Shown piece by piece: positions 1-50,894 of a DNA stretch of 64,000 nt. The notes beneath the pieces are model-generated. The model was not told the DNA's origin. It saw only the letters and a program-made list of their open reading frames with translations, and did not search any database. A program made the translations under genes and the position numbers. Origin of the DNA: a virus (Duplodnaviria > Heunggongvirae > Uroviricota > Caudoviricetes); IMG/VR virus record IMGVR_UViG_2645727901_000008; one strand, 5' to 3'. Position 1 is the stretch's first letter, and every line of letters starts with the position of its first letter.

Positions 1-600
1 CTCGATGACACCAGCAAAGTCACCTGATACAAAGGAAGTGTTTTTGAGTACGTCATCAGCCAAAAATGCCTTCATCTCTGCATGTGGGAAGTAGGGCGCT
101 TTGTATTTGCCATACCCCACGTTGAACTCGCCATTTTGGTTGTACCGCGTTACGCCATTAAAACAGTGACGATTAAGGTACAAAAATGCGGCAGCATGAT
201 GTAGTTGGTCATACTTTCCTCTGTTAAATGCCTCACGCACTTCGAGGTAAGCGTCAGCGTTGTTGTAATTTTTGAAAAAACTATATGACAGCGTGACGAG
301 CGAATGTCCTTCTCGCTGCAATGTCTGATAGAAGTTAATCAGGTCACCGTTAATATCATTAAGCAGGTTGTGGCGAAATCCTGCATTCGTAAATACGGAA
401 CCGCCACCAACGAATGGTTCTATTAACCGCTTACCGTGTGGTAGATGCTCAAGCACTGTAGGCAATTCTGAGAATTTACCACCTACCCATTTGAATATCG
501 GACGCTCATATTCATCCGGAGTCCGAATGGTGCGCATATAGCTAATTTCAGCCATCGTATCCTGTTTTTCTATGGCTATGCTTGCTATAGATTTACTCAT
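1..600 (-). CDS. Dam-like DNA N6-adenine methyltransferase, 3' end truncated by window edge
   Basis: Minus-strand ORF from ATG at 600 runs off the window start; translation carries FKWVGGK (AdoMet motif I) and LYLNRHCFNG typical of Dam-family enzymes; start overlaps upstream stop by 8 nt. Confidence 0.7.
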   Translation of the reverse strand, partial: MSKSIASIAIEKQDTMAEISYMRTIRTPDEYERPIFKWVGGKFSELPTVLEHLPHGKRLIEPFVGGGSVFTNAGFRHNLLNDINGDLINFYQTLQREGHSLVTLSYSFFKNYNNADAYLEVREAFNRGKYDQLHHAAAFLYLNRHCFNGVTRYNQNGEFNVGYGKYKAPYFPHAEMKAFLADDVLKNTSFVSGDFAGVIE

Positions 601-30493: not shown

Positions 30494-31522
30494 TTATGAA
30501 TCCATCAGGCGGCTATTAGCCCCCACAGACACGCCGCCACGGCGCAGATACCGCATAAGTGTTTCCGGTTTCTTCCAGGTTCCTTCCTGCATGATCTCCA
30601 CCATAGACACCTGCTTTTCAGCCATATCGATAGCGGCCCCGACACGAGCACTATGCCCGGTCCACGTCCGGTATCTCCCTTTGTTTGGCGTGGCATCTCT
30701 TTTATTCAGCAACACCCAGGCGTCGCTGAATATTTTCTCCATTGCAGGTGCAGTAAGGGGAGTTGTCGTAATCCTGGCCTTATTGCTACGGTGTATCGGC
30801 GGGAACAGCACCGCGTCAGGATGTTCACGAAGCCCGGAAACATCCAGCCAGTCATTCAGCACTGCGGTAGTGCGACGGGAAAGCACCTTATCAAGCCCGG
30901 CGGCGGTCGTTATTGTCTTCGTGTGTGAAATATGTAGCGTGACAGTGTCACCTGTTTGGTCCAGATCTCCTACACGAATACGCGAGATTTCAGACATTCG
31001 CATCAGCGTATTGTATGCAACGAAGAGGAAAGCCCGGTTACGCAGGTCCACCAGCCGTTCTGACCTGGACAACAGGACGTCGAGCAGTTTCAGATCGTCC
31101 CACCGCAGCGGTATAGCCTGGCCTGTTCGTTCGCCTTTTTCCGTTGCCGCTTCGCGCCGGATGCGCCGCATAGCCAGAGAAACACTTTTATCATCCGAAA
31201 GTGGCGGAAGGCCACAATGCGAAAGCAGCATGTTAAGCATGGCGTAGTGCTTATCAATGGTGGTCGAAGCCAGATCAGCATCATGCAGCTGAAGAAAATA
31301 CTCGCGGGCCATCTCTGGTGAGATCGGGAACCAAGCGAGCTGGCGAGCGTGGCACCATCGCGCCCAGGAGTGAAACACTAACCGGAGATCGCGCAAAGTA
31401 TTCGGCGCGTAAGCCCCCTGGTCATTCATGAACCGCATAAAGTTTTCTGCGGCCTCCTGGTACTCTTTGCCAATGTTGCGCAGAAAACCACCGGAGCTGC
31501 CAGAGATAATTAATTCACTCAT
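30494..31522 (-). CDS. dre: Cre-family tyrosine recombinase (Dre-like)
   Basis: 342 aa; aligns with P1 Cre at NMLLSHCGLPPLSDDKSVSLAMRRIRRE and WTGHSARVGAAIDMAEKQVSMVEIMQEGTW; cognate site is rox-like. Confidence 0.85.
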   Translation of the reverse strand: MSELIISGSSGGFLRNIGKEYQEAAENFMRFMNDQGAYAPNTLRDLRLVFHSWARWCHARQLAWFPISPEMAREYFLQLHDADLASTTIDKHYAMLNMLLSHCGLPPLSDDKSVSLAMRRIRREAATEKGERTGQAIPLRWDDLKLLDVLLSRSERLVDLRNRAFLFVAYNTLMRMSEISRIRVGDLDQTGDTVTLHISHTKTITTAAGLDKVLSRRTTAVLNDWLDVSGLREHPDAVLFPPIHRSNKARITTTPLTAPAMEKIFSDAWVLLNKRDATPNKGRYRTWTGHSARVGAAIDMAEKQVSMVEIMQEGTWKKPETLMRYLRRGGVSVGANSRLMDS

Positions 31523-31673: not shown

Positions 31674-31705
31674 TAACTTTAAATAATGCCAATTATCTAA
31701 AGTTA
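31674..31705. other. rox-like recombination site TAACTTTAAATAAT-GCCA-ATTATCTAAAGTTA (one substitution relative to rox as recalled), about 150 bp upstream of the recombinase start
   Basis: 14-bp inverted arms around a 4-bp spacer read from sequence; also related to loxP. Confidence 0.8.
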
Positions 31706-31906: not shown

Positions 31907-32944
31907 ATGAGTAAGAAGTCGATCGAGAAAGAGTACAAACGGTTCCTGCAAACCGCTGAACGGTGGAAAGAGCTGGTGGTCGCAAACTCTGTTTTCCATG
32001 ATACCAGTTATGCCGGCGAGGAATTCCGCCACGTTGCACTAACACATGATCAGAATGTACTAGAAGAAGCTGAAAAGTGCCTCACAGAATGGAAAGCCTT
32101 TGTTGACTTGTGCCGTAACGCTGACGGCAAAGCGTCCAACATTGTTGAGTCTGTATATTCTCCGATCCCATTCATTATTGAGGACACAAATCAAAGCACG
32201 CATATTGTTGTGCAAAGCGCGACCACCACCCGCTCATTTACGCGCGAAAATCTGCTCAAAAAATATGATGCAATTATAAAGAAAAGCCTGAAAAACAAGA
32301 TATTTTCGCAGATTGTTGGTGCACTTGAAGAAGAGCGCCGTTTTTTCGCATCAGAACCTGAAGGGGAAGTTTACCGGGCGCGCAAAGATGGATACACAGA
32401 TGTAGTGCTTACAACAAACATTGAAGGCAGCAATGCTCTGTCACGATTCAGGGTAGGCGCACACGGAGCCTTAGTGTTCGCAAAACTTCCGAACACCACA
32501 GTGCCCGTTGTTAATAATGTCGGCGAACGTCGCAGCATTACTATTTATTCTGGGGTTGAGTCGATACCTTGCGGCCTGCTTGGTGACTTTAGCCTCTATC
32601 GCGTTCGCGATCTGGAGAAACACCAACCAAGCTATGTTGCGAAGTCATATATCTTGCGAAACATCGACATCCGCAATGAGAGCTTAAAGAACAAATCAGC
32701 CAAAATGCTTGAGGAAGCCGATCCGGCTATTCGCCATATCATTGAGCGTAAAATACAGACAGCACGCGAAGCGATGGCGAGACTGAATAAAATGGATCTG
32801 GAGTTGTTAGACGTAATGATGACATCCGGAGATGACCTGACAGGCATAAAACTGACAGACGCGCGGAAAAGATACGGTAAAACCATAGAAGAACGTTACG
32901 GGTTCACTTTCTCCCAAACACAGCACGCCGCTAAACTCTGGTAA
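31907..32944 (+). CDS. Hypothetical protein (345 aa) at the position P1 uses for its c1 repressor
   Basis: Convergent with pacB and adjacent to the recombination site; TGTTAGAAAA motif 22 bp upstream; no similarity to P1 C1 that I can recognise. Confidence 0.5.
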   Translation: MSKKSIEKEYKRFLQTAERWKELVVANSVFHDTSYAGEEFRHVALTHDQNVLEEAEKCLTEWKAFVDLCRNADGKASNIVESVYSPIPFIIEDTNQSTHIVVQSATTTRSFTRENLLKKYDAIIKKSLKNKIFSQIVGALEEERRFFASEPEGEVYRARKDGYTDVVLTTNIEGSNALSRFRVGAHGALVFAKLPNTTVPVVNNVGERRSITIYSGVESIPCGLLGDFSLYRVRDLEKHQPSYVAKSYILRNIDIRNESLKNKSAKMLEEADPAIRHIIERKIQTAREAMARLNKMDLELLDVMMTSGDDLTGIKLTDARKRYGKTIEERYGFTFSQTQHAAKLW

Positions 32945-32969: not shown

Positions 32970-34478
32970 TTATATATCCAGATCTGGCATTTCCACATCT
33001 GCAAGAACCTGATCGCGGAAGGTAGCCATTTCAGCGCCGATATCTTCATTAGCAGGAACATAGTCCACCAGCATTGTAAAGCAGTAGGTATCCCATCGGT
33101 CAGGTGATTTGATGTTCAGCTTTTGCCGCATGTGCTCCTTGCGCATCATCGCCATCTTCCCTTCTTCATTAAGTAAAAAGGGGATTTTTGACGCTTGCTC
33201 TGCCGTTTTAGGGTCACTGTCTATTCGCATACGACCTGACTTTATGGCATCACGAGCCATAATATTTGCGTAGGCACGTTGGTTAACAAAACGCTCCTTG
33301 TCTTTGTTCGAAAACATGGGTTTCCCCCACCGAATACGTACCGGATTAGCCCCACGGCGCACCAGCTGCGCACAGGTATCTGAACCAAAACCGTCTGCGT
33401 CAACCGCGATTGTAATATTCGGGTATTTATCCGGCGTGCATTCGTTGTATATAAAGTCAGCAAAAGCCAGCGGGTCCATAGTCCCTGGCATTTCCATTAT
33501 CTTAAAGTTAACAACGCGCCGCTTATTCCTGTGACCTGACACCTTGCAGATGTTAAGGACCGACTTGTCTCGCCCGTTCCCAACGTCAGCTGTCGCTACC
33601 CACCCCCAATTTTTCTCCAACAACACCTTGCGCCGCGCAGCGCGATCGCATTCATCACGACCAAGCAAATAGCCGTTAATCTCCCGAGGGAACTGACCAA
33701 GCACCTTAACCATATACTCAATAGAATCGCGCCCGCCATATTCCAGGAGTTTCTGCCTGATGAATTGTGGTGTGACGAACGGTGATTCTTCTGAGTTAAG
33801 AACAATTGCTGTCCAGATCCCTTTCGGGTTGTCTGGGGTTTTAGCTTGAGAATGGTGCGAATCGTAGAAATAACCACTTGGCCTTGTTGGCTGGGATAGC
33901 ATCAACATTCGGTTATCTTCTTCAGTAAGAGCACCGGTCATTACGCCGATCGCCTTATCAGATATACCAGATGCTTCATCCAGAATTAGAAGCAAATGTG
34001 CCGCGTGTTCCCCCGCCAGCGCTTCTTCGTTGCCGAGTCGATAACCTTTGCAGAGAACTTCCCAAATCCCCTTACGGGAGCGCTCATAAAACATGGTGTC
34101 AGAGAGGACAAAATAGGTCTGCAACCACCCATGACGCTTAACTGCATTCGCCCAATACTGTTTAACGTATTTGAATACGCCTGTTTTTACCTGGCCTATC
34201 TTGTTAGCAACAATGATGACACGGGCATCGGGGAACAGGATCATAAAAATCAACAGCAACATCGCGGTAAGGGACGACTTCCCCGTTCCGTGTCCGGACG
34301 TGACGGTAGTCCTACTCCCCGTTTCCTGCACTGACTGAATGATCTGCTGCTGCTGGTGGGAGGGGAACATCCCAAAAATATCGACAACAGCCTGGGTAAA
34401 GTTGTAGCGGTATTTGATTACCATATCGCGCCAGCGTGGATCGCTGGTGACGCATTTAATCTTGCGCCCGCCAGCCAT
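32970..34478 (-). CDS. pacB: Terminase large subunit (PacB-like)
   Basis: 502 aa; Walker A-like TSGHGTGKSS; downstream of and coupled to the pacA-like gene. Confidence 0.8.
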   Translation of the reverse strand: MAGGRKIKCVTSDPRWRDMVIKYRYNFTQAVVDIFGMFPSHQQQQIIQSVQETGSRTTVTSGHGTGKSSLTAMLLLIFMILFPDARVIIVANKIGQVKTGVFKYVKQYWANAVKRHGWLQTYFVLSDTMFYERSRKGIWEVLCKGYRLGNEEALAGEHAAHLLLILDEASGISDKAIGVMTGALTEEDNRMLMLSQPTRPSGYFYDSHHSQAKTPDNPKGIWTAIVLNSEESPFVTPQFIRQKLLEYGGRDSIEYMVKVLGQFPREINGYLLGRDECDRAARRKVLLEKNWGWVATADVGNGRDKSVLNICKVSGHRNKRRVVNFKIMEMPGTMDPLAFADFIYNECTPDKYPNITIAVDADGFGSDTCAQLVRRGANPVRIRWGKPMFSNKDKERFVNQRAYANIMARDAIKSGRMRIDSDPKTAEQASKIPFLLNEEGKMAMMRKEHMRQKLNIKSPDRWDTYCFTMLVDYVPANEDIGAEMATFRDQVLADVEMPDLDI

Positions 34479-35842
34479 TAATCATCCTCCGGCGGTTCTA
34501 TCGCGATATCATCATCTCCGGCGTCATACCCTGCATCAGATACATCATAATCACCGTAAATTTCAGCCGTTGCCGAAGGGTCAATATCCAGCTCTTCGTC
34601 GTTGGCCTCGAATTCTCCAGCTTTACGCTCGCCATTGCGGTCGTAATCTCCGCACCCCAATTCTTCAACAATGGTTGCCACATCCGCCCGGCGCTCTGCC
34701 AGCCATTGCGGATGGTTAGCCTGAAGCGTTGCAAACTCCCTTGCCTCTTTGTCCAGCTGTTCATCATCAACATCATTGACGTCAGAAACAGGTGGTTCGA
34801 GAAGAGTGATAGCTTTCGCCGCGCGCGCCGCGAGGATAGCCGGGACGCTGACCCCCTGGCGCTCGATGTATTCAGCAACACCGATATCATCCAGTTCCTC
34901 GCGCTCACGCATACGTATAGCGGCGGCGATAACTCTGGCTGCGCGTGCGTCAGCGCCAATGCGATATTCAATCTCTTTGCCACGCTGTTCGGCCTGTAGG
35001 CGTGCTAATTCGAGTTTTTCTCTGGCCTCAGCCTCTTTGAATGCTTGCTGGCGAGCGCTCTGACGAAGCTTTTCATCCCCCTGTCGCAGCTTTTGTTCGG
35101 ACTGATATATAGCTGCCAACCTACTGATAAAATCATTCATGTAGTAGGCCGCGTCACTGATTAGACCGAGAAGACGCTGCCCAGGGTGCATTCCTTCTGG
35201 CTCTTTATCGCCCAAGGCGTCTATTTCCGCCTGTAGGCGTTCGGCCTCCTGATCAACAATGCTTTGATACTGAAGTGCGCGCTCTTGCGCCATTTGAATT
35301 GCTAACCGCAGGTGTTCTTCTGCGCCGTTCTTCATCATATCGCGAGCCACATTCGTAGTGGGCAATGTGGCACGCTGCACAGCACCGTCAGGGATCATTG
35401 CAGAAGATCCCTCAATTTTTGGGGCGCTTTTATCTTCTTCGGGGATCATTTTCGCCATTTTTTCGCGCAATGATCTCCTGACAGATTCTTTTATCTCATT
35501 GTTATTATTTGCATTATTTTCATGATCCGAAGTTTTCTTTCTCGGCATACTTCGGAAAGAACCTGCGCCCTGCGAATTGTCAATTTCTGTAAATTTTGTT
35601 TTTTCTGCACCCTCTTCCAGCTTTTTTGTTGCTCTTCCCGCCCGTTTTTTTTCAGGTGATTTGGTGCTTTTTTTTGTTGTCTTTACCTGCGACCGCACCT
35701 CATTTTTTTTCATATTGAGATGCTTTCTGGCTGTATTGAAGCTAAGGCCATGCTCCTCACAGTATTCCTTTACAGTGATCCCTTTTTCTTCACGCAACGC
35801 TATAAAGCGGGCGCGGTGCTCCTCCCAATTAACCAGACTCAT
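34478..35842 (-). CDS. pacA: Terminase small subunit (PacA-like)
   Basis: 454 aa basic and coiled-coil-rich protein in the lpa-pacA-pacB order of P1; internal GATC cluster. Confidence 0.7.
   Translation of the reverse strand: MSLVNWEEHRARFIALREEKGITVKEYCEEHGLSFNTARKHLNMKKNEVRSQVKTTKKSTKSPEKKRAGRATKKLEEGAEKTKFTEIDNSQGAGSFRSMPRKKTSDHENNANNNNEIKESVRRSLREKMAKMIPEEDKSAPKIEGSSAMIPDGAVQRATLPTTNVARDMMKNGAEEHLRLAIQMAQERALQYQSIVDQEAERLQAEIDALGDKEPEGMHPGQRLLGLISDAAYYMNDFISRLAAIYQSEQKLRQGDEKLRQSARQQAFKEAEAREKLELARLQAEQRGKEIEYRIGADARAARVIAAAIRMREREELDDIGVAEYIERQGVSVPAILAARAAKAITLLEPPVSDVNDVDDEQLDKEAREFATLQANHPQWLAERRADVATIVEELGCGDYDRNGERKAGEFEANDEELDIDPSATAEIYGDYDVSDAGYDAGDDDIAIEPPEDD
35393..35527. other. 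Candidate pac site: five GATC elements (mostly TGATCC/TGATCT) within about 135 bp inside pacA
   Basis: GATC at 35393, 35406, 35444, 35472 and 35524 read from sequence; P1 pac is a cluster of TGATC(A/G) hexamers inside pacA. Confidence 0.35.
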
Positions 35843-36231
35843 AAAGCAACACCACGCTTTTTAACGGCGGCATTCCACAGCTTATTCGCCATGTCCACCA
35901 GCTCTCGTTGCTCTTTTCGCGCCTGTTCGACTGATTTCCTGCTACAGTTTTTAACCAGTAAGCTACCGTATTCAGGCGTGCGCCCGCGCACCTTGAACTG
36001 ATATCCGTTCAGACCATGTAGCCAATATTTTCGTGGATACACACGATCATCCAGCTCACAGATTGCCCTGCTTGAACGAACAAAATGACGAATGATGTTA
36101 GTTACACTTACTCGTGAAACATGGAGATGAGGGTATTTTTCTTTGGCGAGAGTGGTAATTTCAGTGACTGTCAGATAGCAGTCAGCCCTGATCATGATAT
36201 CCGCAATTTCTGCGCTGCTGATTTGTTCCAT
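35839..36231 (-). CDS. lpa: Late promoter activator Lpa-like (assigned by position and size)
   Basis: 130-aa ORF immediately upstream of and coupled to pacA. Confidence 0.55.
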   Translation of the reverse strand: MEQISSAEIADIMIRADCYLTVTEITTLAKEKYPHLHVSRVSVTNIIRHFVRSSRAICELDDRVYPRKYWLHGLNGYQFKVRGRTPEYGSLLVKNCSRKSVEQARKEQRELVDMANKLWNAAVKKRGVAL

Positions 36232-44054: not shown

Positions 44055-47000
44055 TTAGGCCGCATCGGCGATTATTTTACGCAATTCATCTACCGAGTAA
44101 CGCGTAGATACCATCCATGCAGGACGGTCAAAGTTCACATCAGCAACCGGGTTTGCTTCAAAATTCCAGAAACGCCCGCCAATCTTCTTAATCGCGTCTT
44201 TGGCGTTCCGTATTGTCGAGGAACCAGGTTGGTCGGCAATGAGATAAACCGCACCGACGTCCTCGCTGACACTCCACCAGCGCCCGCGAACACGCGCCTT
44301 AGCGCGAATCGGCTTATCATTAACCACAATGATATAGTCATCATTCGCCGCTTCATCAGCTCTGGCTTCAGCCACTGCCGCCTGCTCTTCTCTTTTGCTT
44401 TCAGCCTGTTCAAGCCTTTCCGCGATCTCTGATTCGGTGGCCCCGCCGTTTTTCAGCGATACATAGTCTTGCCACGTTGCTGATTTGAGCGCATCCGGCA
44501 ACTCATTCACATAGTCACCGTCTTTCAACTCACGGGCGCGGCGGGTAGCCATTTCTACCAGGCGATTAACAGAAACAGCATCAGCAAAATCGTCCTTACT
44601 AATGTGTTTTTCATCAAATGCATTGATGACAGCCCCCACCTTAATCCACTGCGCTGCTGGCGAATCCAGAGGATTATCGGCCTGAACAATGGCTAATTTC
44701 GCTCCATCGACACCATTATTAGCCAGCTGCTCCAATGCCGACCAGCCATCGGCATCGCTGAGTGATTTATATTGCTCAAACAATGCATCGCGCCAGGCCA
44801 CCAGCGCAGCTCGTGTTTTCTCAATTTTCGCCGTAATTTTCGCGGCCTTCACCTGATTAAACATCCGTTCAATGTCATCAGTGTTGCTAAAGGCTTTCAT
44901 CCTGCCCTGGAATAAACGGTATGCCACCACGGTCTTCCAGAAAGATTCCAGCCCTTCTCCGGACGGTTTACGGAACAGGCTAAGAATATCTTCAGAAGTA
45001 ACTTTATTAAGTGAGCGACCGGACAAACCACGCCCTGCCATCCAGTTTTCAAACTCCTGGGAAACATCATCCATCGTGGCCTGTGACCCCCATGCCTGCA
45101 TTCCCTGGATGTAATCATATCCATACAATGCCTGGAGGAATCCCTCGCCGTCCACGACATTCAGCGGGTTATCACTGGCTTGTATTTTTGCCACTTCACG
45201 CTTCAGCGCCTCATCGTTGCCATCAGGGTAAATCCACCGCTCAGGCGCTATATCCGATGCTCGCCCGATTTTTTGACCTATTACGCCATCATAAGCCGAT
45301 GACAGTGCAATCTGACCATCATCGGTGCGATAAGCCCAGTATTTAATAGCTGAACCACCGCCCCATACTCTACTAGGCTTCCCGGCAGTGACATTCATTA
45401 CCCCATTGCGAATAGCATCATAGAACTGATCGCGCGTAAGTGTTGTTGATAGCTGGTGGCATTGAACACCACGTGCAGCTGTTTCACGCGATTCTGCAAC
45501 TCCCTCTTCAAAGGTTACCGATTCAATTATCAGGTTAAAGGGCAAAAATAATGCCGTCCCCGGAGAACGAGAGTAACGACTAGCCACATCCAGCCAGGAT
45601 ATGCGGCACGTACACCCGCCCCTTTCCGCATCAATGGCGGTAACACGAACAATTGCTGTCGTATTGTGATTCTCATCGATGATCGCGCGATAATGGCTGC
45701 CCTTGTGCAACAAGATATTTTTCTCAGTGCGTACATACTCCTGTGGGTTCTGCAATACATCGGCATCAAGCTCCAGAACCCCGGCTTTAATCGCACGTTC
45801 CAGATCACCACGAGAACGTTTCATAACGGTGTCAGCGTCTTTAGCTCTGGTGATCGCAAAGCGTAGCTCCCGCACACGTTTTCTGTAGTCTCGCAACTGT
45901 TCCAGAACATATTTCTGCCCGTTCCTGTTCGTCCCCGCTTTAATCAGGTCGTCAAGATTGCGCTGGTAATGCTCTACCTGCTCCATCGCGCTTTTCAGTT
46001 CTGTCTCCATCATGCCGATATCTTTCCCGGCAGCATTCGCCGCTTTCAGGTAGTTATCGAGAGCATTATTGGCTTCGCGTAGGGCTTTCAGTTTCAGACG
46101 TTCTTCACGCTCTTGCGCCTGACGACTCATGATTGCACGGCGTTCTTCCGGATTTGCCGCCAGCATAATGGCGCGTTCATCTGCGTCATCCGCATCACCA
46201 TTGGCGATCTCTGACATGTCGGAGGTCATCACCATATTGATCCAGTCCTTCTTACGTTTCAGCGTATCCAGACGGAAGTCATCAAATGTGCCTTTGCCAC
46301 AATAGTAGTGAACATTGACCTTTTCTTGTGGTGAGCCTACCCGAGCGCCGCGCCCATTACGTTGGTCGATACTGGCAGGAGTCCAGGGTAGTGTCAGATG
46401 GTGGATATCGGTTGTCCCGATGTGCAAGTTAATACCTACTTCAGCCTTCTTGTTACAGATTATGATGCGCGTGCGACCTTCGTTATAGTCGGCGGCAATA
46501 CCTTCCATGCCCTCAAGGCCAGCATCATTTTTAGCTGAGAGATAATCCTCATATTGGGCAAGTTTGCTGTAGTAGGTTTCCCATGCACCTTCTTTGTATT
46601 CACCGTTTTTATTTGGCGTAGGTTCAGTCGGCTTATTCACCTTCTTCAGCTTGACGCCGCCAGCCTGGCTAACTGTCGTCGCATTGATAATGCCTATCTC
46701 CTGCTCCGGCATTTGCAGTGCACTGGCAATAATACGGCGCAGCTTCTGGTGCTGGGCTTTTTCATCAATGAAGACGATTTGTTTACCGTTCTTCAGACCT
46801 TCACGAAGGTTTTCGATCAGCGCGGCATACTTCGGCGGGATGGGGTGTGATACCTGCTGCATATCAATACCGGCAGCCGCAATGGCCTTCAGTATTTCAG
46901 CTTCCAGTTCAATGCCAGCACGTATTTCAACATGCGACGGATGTTCGCTAAAGGTGGTCTTCACTACCTTGCTGGCACGCGTACTGACCAGCCCACCAGC

Positions 47001-50000
47001 GCCATCTTCTTCGGCCTCGTCTACATCATCTGCCACTTTACCGCCAGCTACTTTTGGCAGGGCATCAGCAATAGCTTTTACCTTGTCTGCAAGCTCAACG
47101 GGGAACTGGAATGTAATCGCACTGGCATACAGATCAGGATCTATAGCAACCTTATCCATGTCGCGGATGATGGAGAAGATGAAATCATCCGGTTTTTCGT
47201 TTGTGATATGCCCGTTTTCATCGACCGTCAGCGCATCTTTACTACTTAACTCCTGTGCACGCTTACGAAGTTCTTCGTAAATGGCCTCTTGCTCTCCTGT
47301 CATCGGGATCTGCAAGGTATTCTCGACAATATCAGGGATTTTTACCGTCGCCCCGACGTCCGCAGCAGTCTTCAGAGTAGTCCAGCGATGGAAAATACCA
47401 CGCAGACCATCCAGGTTCTGGAAGCCCACCAGTCCCTGCTTCTCTTCCACCTCACCGGAAATTTTCTGAACCTGAACTGTGGCTGTTTTACCGAACACGC
47501 GAACGAAATCATCCGGCGTAACAATACCCATGCGCATCCACTCTTCCTGCGGAATGACAGTAGACAGCATGTTGAAAGCATCAATCGGGCTGTTCACCAG
47601 CGGTGTTGCCGTCAGCATAACCACACCACGCCCGTTGTTGCGTTTCATCATGTACGCAGCTTTTACAGCCATGTCGCGGGCCATTTTGGATACTGCCGGG
47701 TTAGGCAAATATGCCAGTTGCCCCGCTTCGCGCCCGGCGCTAAAGGAGTTGCGGTAGTTATGCCCTTCGTCGGCAATTACGCTATCGAAGTTCATATCCT
47801 CAAAGTACGGGATATTCTGCTTCTTCGTTGTACCGGTATTTGCGGCCTGGTCCTTAATCTTGTTCTTCTTCTGCGCGTCACGGTGTTTGCCAGATGCCAG
47901 GTCAAGACGCCCCATTTCCACAGCATTAAAGACCGCTTGCTGTGAGTTTTCCTCAATGGTTTCTTCTCGTAGCGGGATAGACGCGAATTGCTCTTTTGTC
48001 ATGATGACCGTTCGCCAATTTGACGACGGGATCATGTTCATGCGCTGAACGATAACGGCGCTGGCGGACTCTTTCACAACATTTCTGGTAAGAGCCTGCC
48101 CGTTACTGTCGAGGCGTGGTTCGCCATTTTCATCAAGCACCGGCGCGGTCAGAATATTTCCGCTGTCATCACGAACTTCATCCAAACCGATAAACATCAT
48201 ATTGGCGAAGGCATCAGAACTGTAGAAACTCTGTGCCTCGTGATACCAGTTCTGATAAACCGCCTTCGGAACAACAATACACGTGCGTTTAGTGCGACCT
48301 GTTTCGAAGTTATACGCCTCAAGCGCAAGCGCGGTCGTGGTTTTACCCAGCCCGGTGCCAAATCCCATGATGCCGCGCCCATCTTCTGATAAGCGACGAA
48401 CTTCTTCATTCTGATAAGTCAGAGGAATGCGCTTCCCACTAATCCCCTCCAGGCCAAGCGGTGCGTCAGAATGCGTAAACGGGATGAAGCCATTAAATGC
48501 GTCGTTATAGTCGCGGGCTATCTGATCAGCCTGCGGGTGAGTGCGTAACCAGTCGTTGAAGCTAATTTCCAGTTGAGCAATCTTATCCAGGTACTCGTTA
48601 GCGTTCTGCCCACGCGGTTTAATGCCGTTCAGGTAGTTTTCTAACTGGTTCAGGAAGCCGTCTTTATTGTTGGCCTTCTTGAACTCATTCCCGTTTTTGC
48701 CGTTTACGGTTCGTAGTTGATAGCCAGTAAATACCCCGTCCTTACCTTCGTAATCGTCCGGAGATACCAGAATGCCGTCCTCAACCTTAAGGTCGGGTTC
48801 TGTATACTTAAACTCGTCATAGCCCTGCTCTGCCAGGAACTCTTTTATCAAGCGGCGATCCAGCCAGCGGGCGTTCAGATTAACGGTGACTTTATTTAGT
48901 GGCGTGAAAATGCGTTTCTCTTCGATTTTCGCCAACTGACGCTCAAAGTTCGCTTTCTGCTCACCTGTTGACGCATCACGCCAGCCCACCAGCAATGCTG
49001 TTTTGGTTGCAATATCGCCGCTGGTGGCGCGGTCCATCGGCAGCAGGCAGCCATACCCATCAATAGCGATATCATCAAATTTCGCCAGGTATTCCAGAGC
49101 AGCATCGTCGTCTCCTGGCAGTTCGCCAGCAAACGCCTCACGAAAATCGTCCAGTGTGATTGGATTAAGTGCCACGTCACTGAAAAGGTGGGTTACAACT
49201 TGTTCCGGGCGTGTAAAGTCAATACCGGCAGCACCATCCGTTACATCAAGTCGTCCAGCAAGGAGGTCAGAAGCAGAGCCGTCCTGTTTCACGTTGCCAG
49301 TGAAAGTCATCCAGTTTTTAGCGCCAGCTTCAGCAATCCCATTCAGCTTAATCGCGTGCGGCGGACCATACTTCGCAATTTCGGCTTCCGCCAGGCGCGC
49401 GGCATCAGCAAGTACATCATCAACATTTTCCCCCAGATTACGCTTATCAAGCGCCTTGTTGATCAACTGCCCTATCAGTGCGCCGCGCATAACGCGTTCT
49501 CTGTCTTTTTCTCTCTGCTTGCCAGCAAAGCGAATCATTGCCGCTACTTCATCACTGATAACCGATGGATAGTCGGACGCGATCGCCGATATCTGGTCCC
49601 ATGACAACGCCAGAATGCCATTTGTTGACTGAAACGCGATCTGCAGATCACCAAACGTCGTAACACCATATCGATTTACATCAAGCGCGGAGGATTTGGT
49701 TGTCGCGTCCTTGACCCATTTCAGACCATCAAACTCATGCCAGATGCCGCCTACAAGGCGTTTATCGCCCACTTTCGCGCCCTGCCATGCCTGAGTAGTT
49801 ACGCCAAGCAAATCCCAATTAATGCGGCTTTCAAAGCGGCGCGATAGAGCGGTTTTCATCGACTCATTGGATACACGACCGTCCTTTTTCACCACCAGGG
49901 TATTGCGGAAGCTGGTACGCTCCATATCGCCGTAAACAAATCGCTTCCCTTCGGTTGTAAACCATTTTCCTTTGAGGAAGGTATCCCAAAGGACGTTTGC

Positions 50001-50894
50001 CGATTTGAGCGTTGCATCATCCGTGTCGGGGATCATCTCCAGGAAGGTTTCCGGGTGTTTACGCAATACCCATACGTCCACCACGGTATCTGTACCGGAT
50101 TCGCTGAACGTACCAGAAGGCATACGATGTGCGCCCAAAAATTCCGCTTTACGGCTGACTTTATCGCGCAATTTTTTGTATTTCGTACCATCGGTCATGC
50201 CATTCGGCACCACCAATACAATTAGTCCACCAGGTTTAACCTTGTCGATCGTGCGCAACACAAAGTAATTGCCAACGTTCTTCTCGTTTGCATATGCCGG
50301 ATCAAGCCCGGCAACGCCGGAACGCCCTTCACCAAACGGTACGTTACCAACAGCGTGGTCATACATTGCGTCTTTCGCCGCCAGCGCCTCAAACGCCCCG
50401 ATATTCACATCGTCTTCCGGGTGCAAAAGCTGGTTTATTCGACCGGAAATCGGAGACAGTTCGGCGCTGGTCATTATCATGCCCTGCCGTTTTGTCTCCT
50501 GGAAAATACCTGTGCCCGCTGATGGTTCCAGTACGTGCCCACCATCAATACCGTAGTCAGCAAACAGATCCCATATACCTTCAGCCATAAACTGTGGCGT
50601 GTAGTATTCGTATTGGCTGCCCTCACCATCTGTCAGGCCGCCTTCACCGGTATACCCGGCAAGAATCTGACGTTGTTCGTCAGTTAATTTCGCCCCATCG
50701 AAGCCGGGCGGAAGGGAATTAAGAAGATTTACTGCGGCATTGTTTGCTGCCCGGCGTGTTTTCTGAATACTGACGCCATCGGCTTTCCTGACGCCAAAGG
50801 TCGCAACAGCACGTAATTTATGCAACCGACTAACAATTTCAATCAGTTCGCCTAAGCTGGAGGCTTCACTGATTGAATGAAGTAGTTTGTCCAA
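44055..50894 (-). CDS. darB: DarB-like giant antirestriction protein (N6-adenine methyltransferase plus SF2 helicase), TTG start
   Basis: 2279 aa; MTase motifs EPSAGTGIF and GNVPFGEG; helicase motifs GFGTGLGKTTTAL, DEGHNYRN, LTATPLVNS; size matches P1 DarB. Confidence 0.8.
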   Translation of the reverse strand: MDKLLHSISEASSLGELIEIVSRLHKLRAVATFGVRKADGVSIQKTRRAANNAAVNLLNSLPPGFDGAKLTDEQRQILAGYTGEGGLTDGEGSQYEYYTPQFMAEGIWDLFADYGIDGGHVLEPSAGTGIFQETKRQGMIMTSAELSPISGRINQLLHPEDDVNIGAFEALAAKDAMYDHAVGNVPFGEGRSGVAGLDPAYANEKNVGNYFVLRTIDKVKPGGLIVLVVPNGMTDGTKYKKLRDKVSRKAEFLGAHRMPSGTFSESGTDTVVDVWVLRKHPETFLEMIPDTDDATLKSANVLWDTFLKGKWFTTEGKRFVYGDMERTSFRNTLVVKKDGRVSNESMKTALSRRFESRINWDLLGVTTQAWQGAKVGDKRLVGGIWHEFDGLKWVKDATTKSSALDVNRYGVTTFGDLQIAFQSTNGILALSWDQISAIASDYPSVISDEVAAMIRFAGKQREKDRERVMRGALIGQLINKALDKRNLGENVDDVLADAARLAEAEIAKYGPPHAIKLNGIAEAGAKNWMTFTGNVKQDGSASDLLAGRLDVTDGAAGIDFTRPEQVVTHLFSDVALNPITLDDFREAFAGELPGDDDAALEYLAKFDDIAIDGYGCLLPMDRATSGDIATKTALLVGWRDASTGEQKANFERQLAKIEEKRIFTPLNKVTVNLNARWLDRRLIKEFLAEQGYDEFKYTEPDLKVEDGILVSPDDYEGKDGVFTGYQLRTVNGKNGNEFKKANNKDGFLNQLENYLNGIKPRGQNANEYLDKIAQLEISFNDWLRTHPQADQIARDYNDAFNGFIPFTHSDAPLGLEGISGKRIPLTYQNEEVRRLSEDGRGIMGFGTGLGKTTTALALEAYNFETGRTKRTCIVVPKAVYQNWYHEAQSFYSSDAFANMMFIGLDEVRDDSGNILTAPVLDENGEPRLDSNGQALTRNVVKESASAVIVQRMNMIPSSNWRTVIMTKEQFASIPLREETIEENSQQAVFNAVEMGRLDLASGKHRDAQKKNKIKDQAANTGTTKKQNIPYFEDMNFDSVIADEGHNYRNSFSAGREAGQLAYLPNPAVSKMARDMAVKAAYMMKRNNGRGVVMLTATPLVNSPIDAFNMLSTVIPQEEWMRMGIVTPDDFVRVFGKTATVQVQKISGEVEEKQGLVGFQNLDGLRGIFHRWTTLKTAADVGATVKIPDIVENTLQIPMTGEQEAIYEELRKRAQELSSKDALTVDENGHITNEKPDDFIFSIIRDMDKVAIDPDLYASAITFQFPVELADKVKAIADALPKVAGGKVADDVDEAEEDGAGGLVSTRASKVVKTTFSEHPSHVEIRAGIELEAEILKAIAAAGIDMQQVSHPIPPKYAALIENLREGLKNGKQIVFIDEKAQHQKLRRIIASALQMPEQEIGIINATTVSQAGGVKLKKVNKPTEPTPNKNGEYKEGAWETYYSKLAQYEDYLSAKNDAGLEGMEGIAADYNEGRTRIIICNKKAEVGINLHIGTTDIHHLTLPWTPASIDQRNGRGARVGSPQEKVNVHYYCGKGTFDDFRLDTLKRKKDWINMVMTSDMSEIANGDADDADERAIMLAANPEERRAIMSRQAQEREERLKLKALREANNALDNYLKAANAAGKDIGMMETELKSAMEQVEHYQRNLDDLIKAGTNRNGQKYVLEQLRDYRKRVRELRFAITRAKDADTVMKRSRGDLERAIKAGVLELDADVLQNPQEYVRTEKNILLHKGSHYRAIIDENHNTTAIVRVTAIDAERGGCTCRISWLDVASRYSRSPGTALFLPFNLIIESVTFEEGVAESRETAARGVQCHQLSTTLTRDQFYDAIRNGVMNVTAGKPSRVWGGGSAIKYWAYRTDDGQIALSSAYDGVIGQKIGRASDIAPERWIYPDGNDEALKREVAKIQASDNPLNVVDGEGFLQALYGYDYIQGMQAWGSQATMDDVSQEFENWMAGRGLSGRSLNKVTSEDILSLFRKPSGEGLESFWKTVVAYRLFQGRMKAFSNTDDIERMFNQVKAAKITAKIEKTRAALVAWRDALFEQYKSLSDADGWSALEQLANNGVDGAKLAIVQADNPLDSPAAQWIKVGAVINAFDEKHISKDDFADAVSVNRLVEMATRRARELKDGDYVNELPDALKSATWQDYVSLKNGGATESEIAERLEQAESKREEQAAVAEARADEAANDDYIIVVNDKPIRAKARVRGRWWSVSEDVGAVYLIADQPGSSTIRNAKDAIKKIGGRFWNFEANPVADVNFDRPAWMVSTRYSVDELRKIIADAA

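Follow-up and report, generated by a model that had tools for sequence, protein, structure and literature searches.

GATC repeats inside pacA as a candidate pac site of D6-type plasmid prophages

The DNA analysed here, referred to as the window, is a stretch of 64,000 nucleotides (64 kb) taken as a whole. On its minus strand it carries an open reading frame with 99.0% nucleotide identity to pacA of phage D6, whose product matches the PHROG terminase and small-terminase families (phrog_1711, E = 1e-183) and shares 21% amino acid identity with P1 PacA (E = 7e-10); Pfam and PDB searches with PacA gave no match. The start of pacA is overlapped by lpa (35839-36231), and the neighbouring PacB is 56% identical to P1 PacB. 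On the pacB/c1 side, 3.7 kb away from the GATC cluster described below, a rox-like site is flanked by a Dre-type tyrosine recombinase gene (30494-31522) and a c1-sized gene (31907-32944), and the gene order pacA-pacB-c1-rox-dre is conserved. The main features are the following:

1-600, minus strand: 5' part, cut by the window edge, of a gene for a Dam-family (D12 class) N6-adenine DNA methyltransferase (PF02086, E = 7e-37)
31674-31705, plus strand: rox-like recombination site, with one mismatch to D6 rox
32970-34478, minus strand: pacB, large (nuclease/ATPase) pacase subunit, 502 aa (Terminase_6N and PHROG large-terminase matches)
34478-35842, minus strand: pacA, small (recognition) subunit of the pacase/terminase, 454 aa (ORF list, D6 match and PHROG matches)

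Because of this neighbourhood, composed of pacA, lpa, pacB, the c1-sized gene, rox and the Dre-type recombinase gene, the 64-kb window is assigned by its gene content to a D6-type, P1-related plasmid prophage. The single mismatch of the rox-like site is a T to C change within one inverted-repeat arm. Elsewhere in the window, a 2279-aa ORF (44055-50894, minus strand) displays SNF2/helicase domains and a borderline N6_Mtase match, and recalls P1 DarB by its size.

Concerning the methylase, the fragment present in the window is 62.5% identical to residues 465-653 (the Dam domain) of P1 Dmt, and its gene adjoins rdgC (1257-2162), as dmt adjoins hrdC in P1. The C5-methylase half, which is fused in P1 Dmt, was not found within the window, and the ORF located before the methylase gene (593-1345) had no Pfam match.

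Five GATC sites, starting at 35393, 35406, 35444, 35472 and 35524 (span 35393-35527), are all located within pacA. On the pacA strand, they correspond to gene nt 316, 368, 396, 434 and 447, the cluster occupying nt 316-450 of the 1365-nt gene. The preliminary description had placed five GATC sites at this position inside the small-terminase gene, and both the sequence scan and the ORF list bear this out. It had also described them as mostly TGATCC or TGATCT, which is the case for four of the five when read on either strand, the fifth being AGATCC. Its expectation of less than one such site by chance agrees with the value of about 0.49 GATC per 135 bp that is derived from the 232 GATC counted in 64 kb.

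As a whole, the window is not enriched in GATC (232 observed vs. 252 expected), and when it was shuffled 500 times over its entire length with dinucleotides preserved, 113 of the shuffles (23%) contained at least five GATC within 135 bp. The density of the cluster, taken as a scan statistic, is not significant; since 23% of the shuffles equal the cluster, density was dropped as the main argument. It is because of its conservation, and not because of its density, that the cluster stands above chance. Moreover, neither the window nor either of two complete diverged plasmids has a denser cluster of GATC or of WGATCC, which fits what is expected of a site that should be unique.

Each GATC constitutes the core of a repeat of 9-11 nt, with the consensus AATGATCCC, which is present in both orientations: relative to pacA, sites 1, 2 and 4 are inverted, and sites 3 and 5 direct. 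The five units, the spacer between the first two of them and a possible outlying copy are distributed as follows:

35522-35528, plus strand (inverted relative to pacA): site 1, ATGATCC; GATC at 35524-35527, pacA nt 316; codes D-H
35469-35477, plus strand (inverted relative to pacA): site 2, AATGATCTC; GATC at 35472-35475, pacA nt 368
35442-35450, minus strand (pacA strand): site 3, AATGATCCC; GATC at 35444-35447, pacA nt 396; codes M-I-P
35403-35412, plus strand (inverted relative to pacA): site 4, GAAGATCCCT; GATC at 35406-35409, pacA nt 434; codes G-S
35391-35399, minus strand (pacA strand): site 5, AATGATCCC; GATC at 35393-35396, pacA nt 447; codes M-I-P
35479-35521, minus strand: A+T-rich spacer between sites 1 and 2 (65-85% A+T in the A+T profile)
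35776-35782, plus strand: possible outlying repeat, TGATCCC; GATC at 35777-35780, pacA nt 63; codes G-I-T

Successive sites are separated by 52, 28, 38 and 13 nt, and the pairs sharing the same orientation (sites 1-2 and 3-5) are 51-52 nt apart, which is roughly five helical turns. Site 4, which is degenerate in the window (AGATCCC), matches AATGATCCCT perfectly in the E. marmotae lineage, as do sites 2, 3 and 5 there, with two copies per orientation; sites 4 and 5 of that lineage make up an inverted repeat of 10 nt whose arms are 3 nt apart. The 9-mer AATGATCCC is nearly confined to the cluster: of its occurrences, two of three in the window, four of five in one complete plasmid and three of three in the other fall there. 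As for the spacer between sites 1 and 2, an ATAACA island (35500-35505) is invariant within this otherwise variable A+T-rich segment which, speculatively, is a candidate cleavage region. The outlying TGATCCC at nt 63, which all D6-type lineages keep, is possibly a sixth repeat at a distance from the others; in the clade at 55% identity, G-I-T is also encoded here, but with no GATC.

The conservation of these units was analysed among the D6-type elements. The segment was matched by 119 PLSDB plasmids, in identity bands ranging from >99% down to about 68%, and the alignment set consisted of the window, D6 and nine plasmids out of three deep lineages. All five GATC occupy identical gene positions in the three D6-type lineages, where the local nucleotide identity is only 0.62-0.68, and in the D6-type alignment the protein around them is otherwise poorly conserved. 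In order to obtain a baseline, the whole window was aligned to the complete E. marmotae and E. fergusonii plasmids, retaining the sites with less than 80% local identity in both: GATC was kept in both plasmids at five of the five cluster sites vs. three of 31 elsewhere (Fisher p = 1.5e-4). Among six sequences, 39 of the 50 columns within the 10-nt units are invariant vs. 43 of the 131 columns between units (p = 5e-8), and the invariant columns include all 20 of the core GATC. Also, all five sites are kept by 29 of 31 distinct D6-type sequences, the other two being natural variants without one site each. The cluster is conserved beyond the local background and independently of the reading frame, as is expected of a functional DNA site under purifying selection.

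In two plasmids, pSa1423-90k and pMUB-MIN14-1, all five GATC repeats are present although pacA contains many frameshifts or stops. These broken genes reflect either sequencing errors or decay.

Distant PacA homologs, with 55, 54, 48, 42 and 34% identity, were retrieved from IMG/VR, Logan and JGI assemblies, and the corresponding loci (L048, L099, L097, L098 and L052) all display lpa-pacA-pacB-c1 synteny. PacA homologs of about 34-55% identity are named as Klebsiella, Enterobacter and Raoultella proteins. A scan of genome contigs with a PacA alignment returned only three P1-like loci, and D6 itself was the only tblastn match in the phage collection.

In each distant relative, 5-8 GATC fall within the corresponding linker-coding region of pacA, the rest of the gene having few. 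Almost all of these sites read WGATCC(C), on either strand and in all three reading frames, and the peptides that they code vary accordingly (DH, GS, MIP, KIP, VIP, NDP and GIK). On the protein-anchored map, sites 2, 3 and 5 of the D6 type are positionally homologous down to 42% amino acid identity, as GS(F/S), (M/K)IP and the last (M/K)IP, respectively; site 2 codes R-S in the window and G-S in relatives. Site 1 is invariant across all D6-type lineages and absent in the relatives at 42-55% identity. Within the D6 subgroup, Arg/Gly swaps (AGA, GGA) at sites 2 and 4 preserve GATC. Because one DNA word is fixed while frame, strand and peptide change, the comparison shows that selection acts on the DNA rather than on the peptide.

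The layout of the array differs between these groups. The relatives at 42-55% identity possess, at nt ~160-240, 2-3 further sites that form a left-hand group and give them a bipartite, P1-like layout, whereas the D6 subgroup is without this group and has its own sites at nt 316 and 434, together with the lone TGATCCC at nt 63. Since the D6 subgroup lacks the left-hand group but carries this TGATCCC, the functional site may reach beyond 35393-35527, and the site as delimited here may be incomplete.

Two relatives, L013 (24705-24807) and L016 (NZ_CP137859, 49537-49634), possess further, secondary clusters, each with four GATC within about 100 bp. One of them lies beside the lytic replication gene and the other in the dre-c1 intergenic region; they may be other Dam-sensitive sites.

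Concerning DNA ends, contig L051 of the isolate assembly 2537562191 ends, and contig L040 of the same assembly begins, inside pacA, at nt 329 and 320, respectively (window 35514-35523). The two contigs overlap by 10 nt (ATGAAAATAA), one base past GATC site 1. A contig break at pacA nt 320-329 was found in one of 22 IMG/VR contigs. This break, which is anecdotal, could stem from a physical terminus of the DNA at pac or from an unremarkable interruption of the assembly. Both GenBank records of D6 are devoid of a pac annotation, and in the table of a 2021 survey (PMC8026635) the packaging mechanism of D6 is given as 'Not determined', with reference to the D6 genome paper. A literature search, whose reach did not extend to the original D6 genome description, returned no other statement on a D6 pac.

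Taken together, the cluster is probably the pac (packaging initiation) site of D6-type elements, or at least its recognition core, as judged from sequence comparison. The preliminary description had proposed a P1-like pac site: the conserved, frame-independent GATC array internal to pacA agrees with it, while the TGATC(A/G) hexamers and the 4+3 layout of P1 are absent, and the site is very probably a variant of the P1 kind, with another repeat word, another orientation pattern and another layout. We infer pac function, packaging direction, cleavage position and methylation dependence. Because the GATC core is retained family-wide and because a Dam-family methylase is encoded by the element, cleavage in the D6-type cluster is predicted to be under putative Dam control.

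P1 packages from pac towards lox. The five repeats of the AATGATCCC type lie within the linker-coding stretch of pacA, which is poorly conserved. By analogy with P1, they would be bound by several PacA molecules via the N-terminal helix-turn-helix domain, PacB would be recruited by these, and the DNA would be cut near the repeats. Headful packaging would then run towards pacB, c1 and rox, and the first-headful molecules would thus carry rox in their terminal redundancy. Methylation of the GATC sites by the host Dam and by the Dam-family enzyme of the element itself would decide between binding and cutting.

Three other explanations were considered. According to the one that survives best, which we nonetheless regard as unlikely, the repeats are PacA/PacB recognition elements of pac in which methylation has no regulatory role, GATC being merely part of the recognition sequence. 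The flanks of the repeat (AAT..CCC) are indeed conserved as strongly as its core, and sequence recognition alone could suffice. Against this, a Dam-family methylase is encoded by both P1 and the present element, and Dam control has been published for P1 (PMC10028697). Also, the flanks have switched between TGATCA/G and WGATCC, yet no PacA lineage, down to 20-22% identity, has lost the GATC core; this is the pattern expected if a methylatable core is essential, and it argues mildly against recognition alone.

A second explanation, which we consider improbable, is that the cluster responds to Dam/SeqA as an element of regulation or sequestration, timing for instance the expression of pacA and pacB, with pac located elsewhere. 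Clustered GATC sites are targets of SeqA and of Dam regulation. This property of GATC clusters, as well as the 'Not determined' entry for D6 packaging (PMC8026635), would be compatible with such an element. However, the scan for sigma-70-like promoters found none in or next to the cluster, the homologous cluster of P1 is a mapped cleavage site, and no comparable other repeat cluster is present in the window or in the two complete relatives. The extended asymmetric repeat, occurring in both orientations, moreover points to a sequence-specific binding protein rather than to SeqA, which needs GATC alone.

Finally, a cluster due to chance or to a coding by-product (repeated M-I-P, G-S and D-H), with no role for the DNA, is most improbable: five GATC in 135 bp do occur in 23% of shuffled windows, and sites 3 and 5 both code an M-I-P conserved in the D6 subgroup, but the sites remain invariant while the surrounding peptide diverges, the R/G changes at sites 2 and 4 keep xGA-TCx, the motif is kept in three frames, on both strands and with different peptides in the wider relatives, and the baseline retention of GATC at similar divergence is only 3/31.

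The reading of the cluster as a pac site may be extended to the P1/D6 supergroup as a whole, where methylatable GATC arrays inside pacA would be pac and the recognition code would have switched between clades, being near-palindromic TGATCA/G in P1-like phages and asymmetric AATGATCCC in convergent and divergent pairs in the D6 clade. PacA, which diverges fast, would have co-evolved with this switch, PacB and the GATC core remaining unchanged. To this extended reading we give slightly less than an even chance. If it is true, the pac of the D6 subgroup is a compressed, single-block site of 135 bp that is orthogonal to that of P1, and the methylation-sensing core is its ancestral and indispensable element.

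Prophages of this D6-like plasmid type are frequent in E. coli, Salmonella and Shigella, and their packaging start is listed as undetermined. A candidate pac of 135 bp with a clear consensus makes the start of the headful series and generalized transduction testable, as well as the question of whether packaging is Dam-controlled throughout the P1 supergroup or in P1 alone. A switch of the flanks around a fixed GATC core would also provide a case of co-evolution between a small terminase and its site, and possibly a second, non-cross-reacting pac signal for phagemid or transduction vectors. Such a pac candidate will be unsurprising to a P1 specialist, yet it is concrete and testable for a widespread group of phage-plasmids.

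As regards known packaging sites of other headful phages, pac is embedded in the gene of the recognising protein in P22 (gene 3), SPP1 (gene 1) and Sf6, and the candidate described here resembles them in being a packaging site inside the small-terminase gene. The pac sites of these three phages are not arrays of GATC repeats and are not known to be under methylation control. The P22 pac is discussed in PMC11260489.

The comparison with P1 was made by protein-anchored mapping; a direct DNA alignment with P1 pac was dropped because the proteins are only 21% identical. The P1 pac site is reportedly due to the work of Sternberg and Coulby. It is annotated in NC_005856 at 90.8 kb, corresponding to nt ~195-351 of P1 pacA, and its minimal form of 161 bp consists of seven hexamers (HEX4 and HEX3). 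P1 and its Pantoea relative possess about eight GATC in the same part of pacA, arranged in two groups of four, which are located at nt 195-229 and 325-376 in P1. TGATCA/G is found at eight of eight sites in P1 and at seven of nine in the Pantoea relative, and WGATCC in neither. In the NC_005856 annotation, the two P1 repeat groups enclose an IHF site as well as the primary cleavage points. For this 161-bp pac, control by Dam methylation has been proposed, and synonymous disruption of the hexamers cuts the P1 titre about nine-fold (PMC10028697).

The D6-type cluster differs from this arrangement in several respects. Its repeat is the asymmetric AATGATCCC/WGATCC in both orientations, whereas that of P1 is the near-palindromic TGATCA/G: none of the five cluster sites is a TGATCA/G hexamer, four being WGATCC and one TGATCT. 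The 4+3 split of P1 around a spacer of ~90-96 nt is not present in the cluster. The IHF pattern WATCAANNNNTTR was not found with up to one mismatch at pacA nt 120-520, in a scan that recovers the P1 site; since IHF sites are degenerate, a more divergent one may be present. Also, the P1-type intergenic LPpac promoter is absent here, since lpa overlaps pacA.

On the other hand, the likenesses to P1 concern both the site and its surroundings. As in P1 pac, multiple short GATC-containing repeats form the densest GATC cluster of the genome region, and they fall within the 5' third of pacA, where the linker following the N-terminal DNA-binding domain is encoded. As in P1, the cluster adjoins pacB-c1, with rox at 3.7 kb compared to lox at ~4 kb from P1 pac, and the element encodes a Dam-family methylase. 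The identity to P1 of PacA (21%) vs. PacB (56%) fits a recognition subunit that has co-evolved with a changed repeat. Across the family, the sequences place a GATC-repeat array in the PacA linker-coding part, and its flanking bases track the PacA clade.
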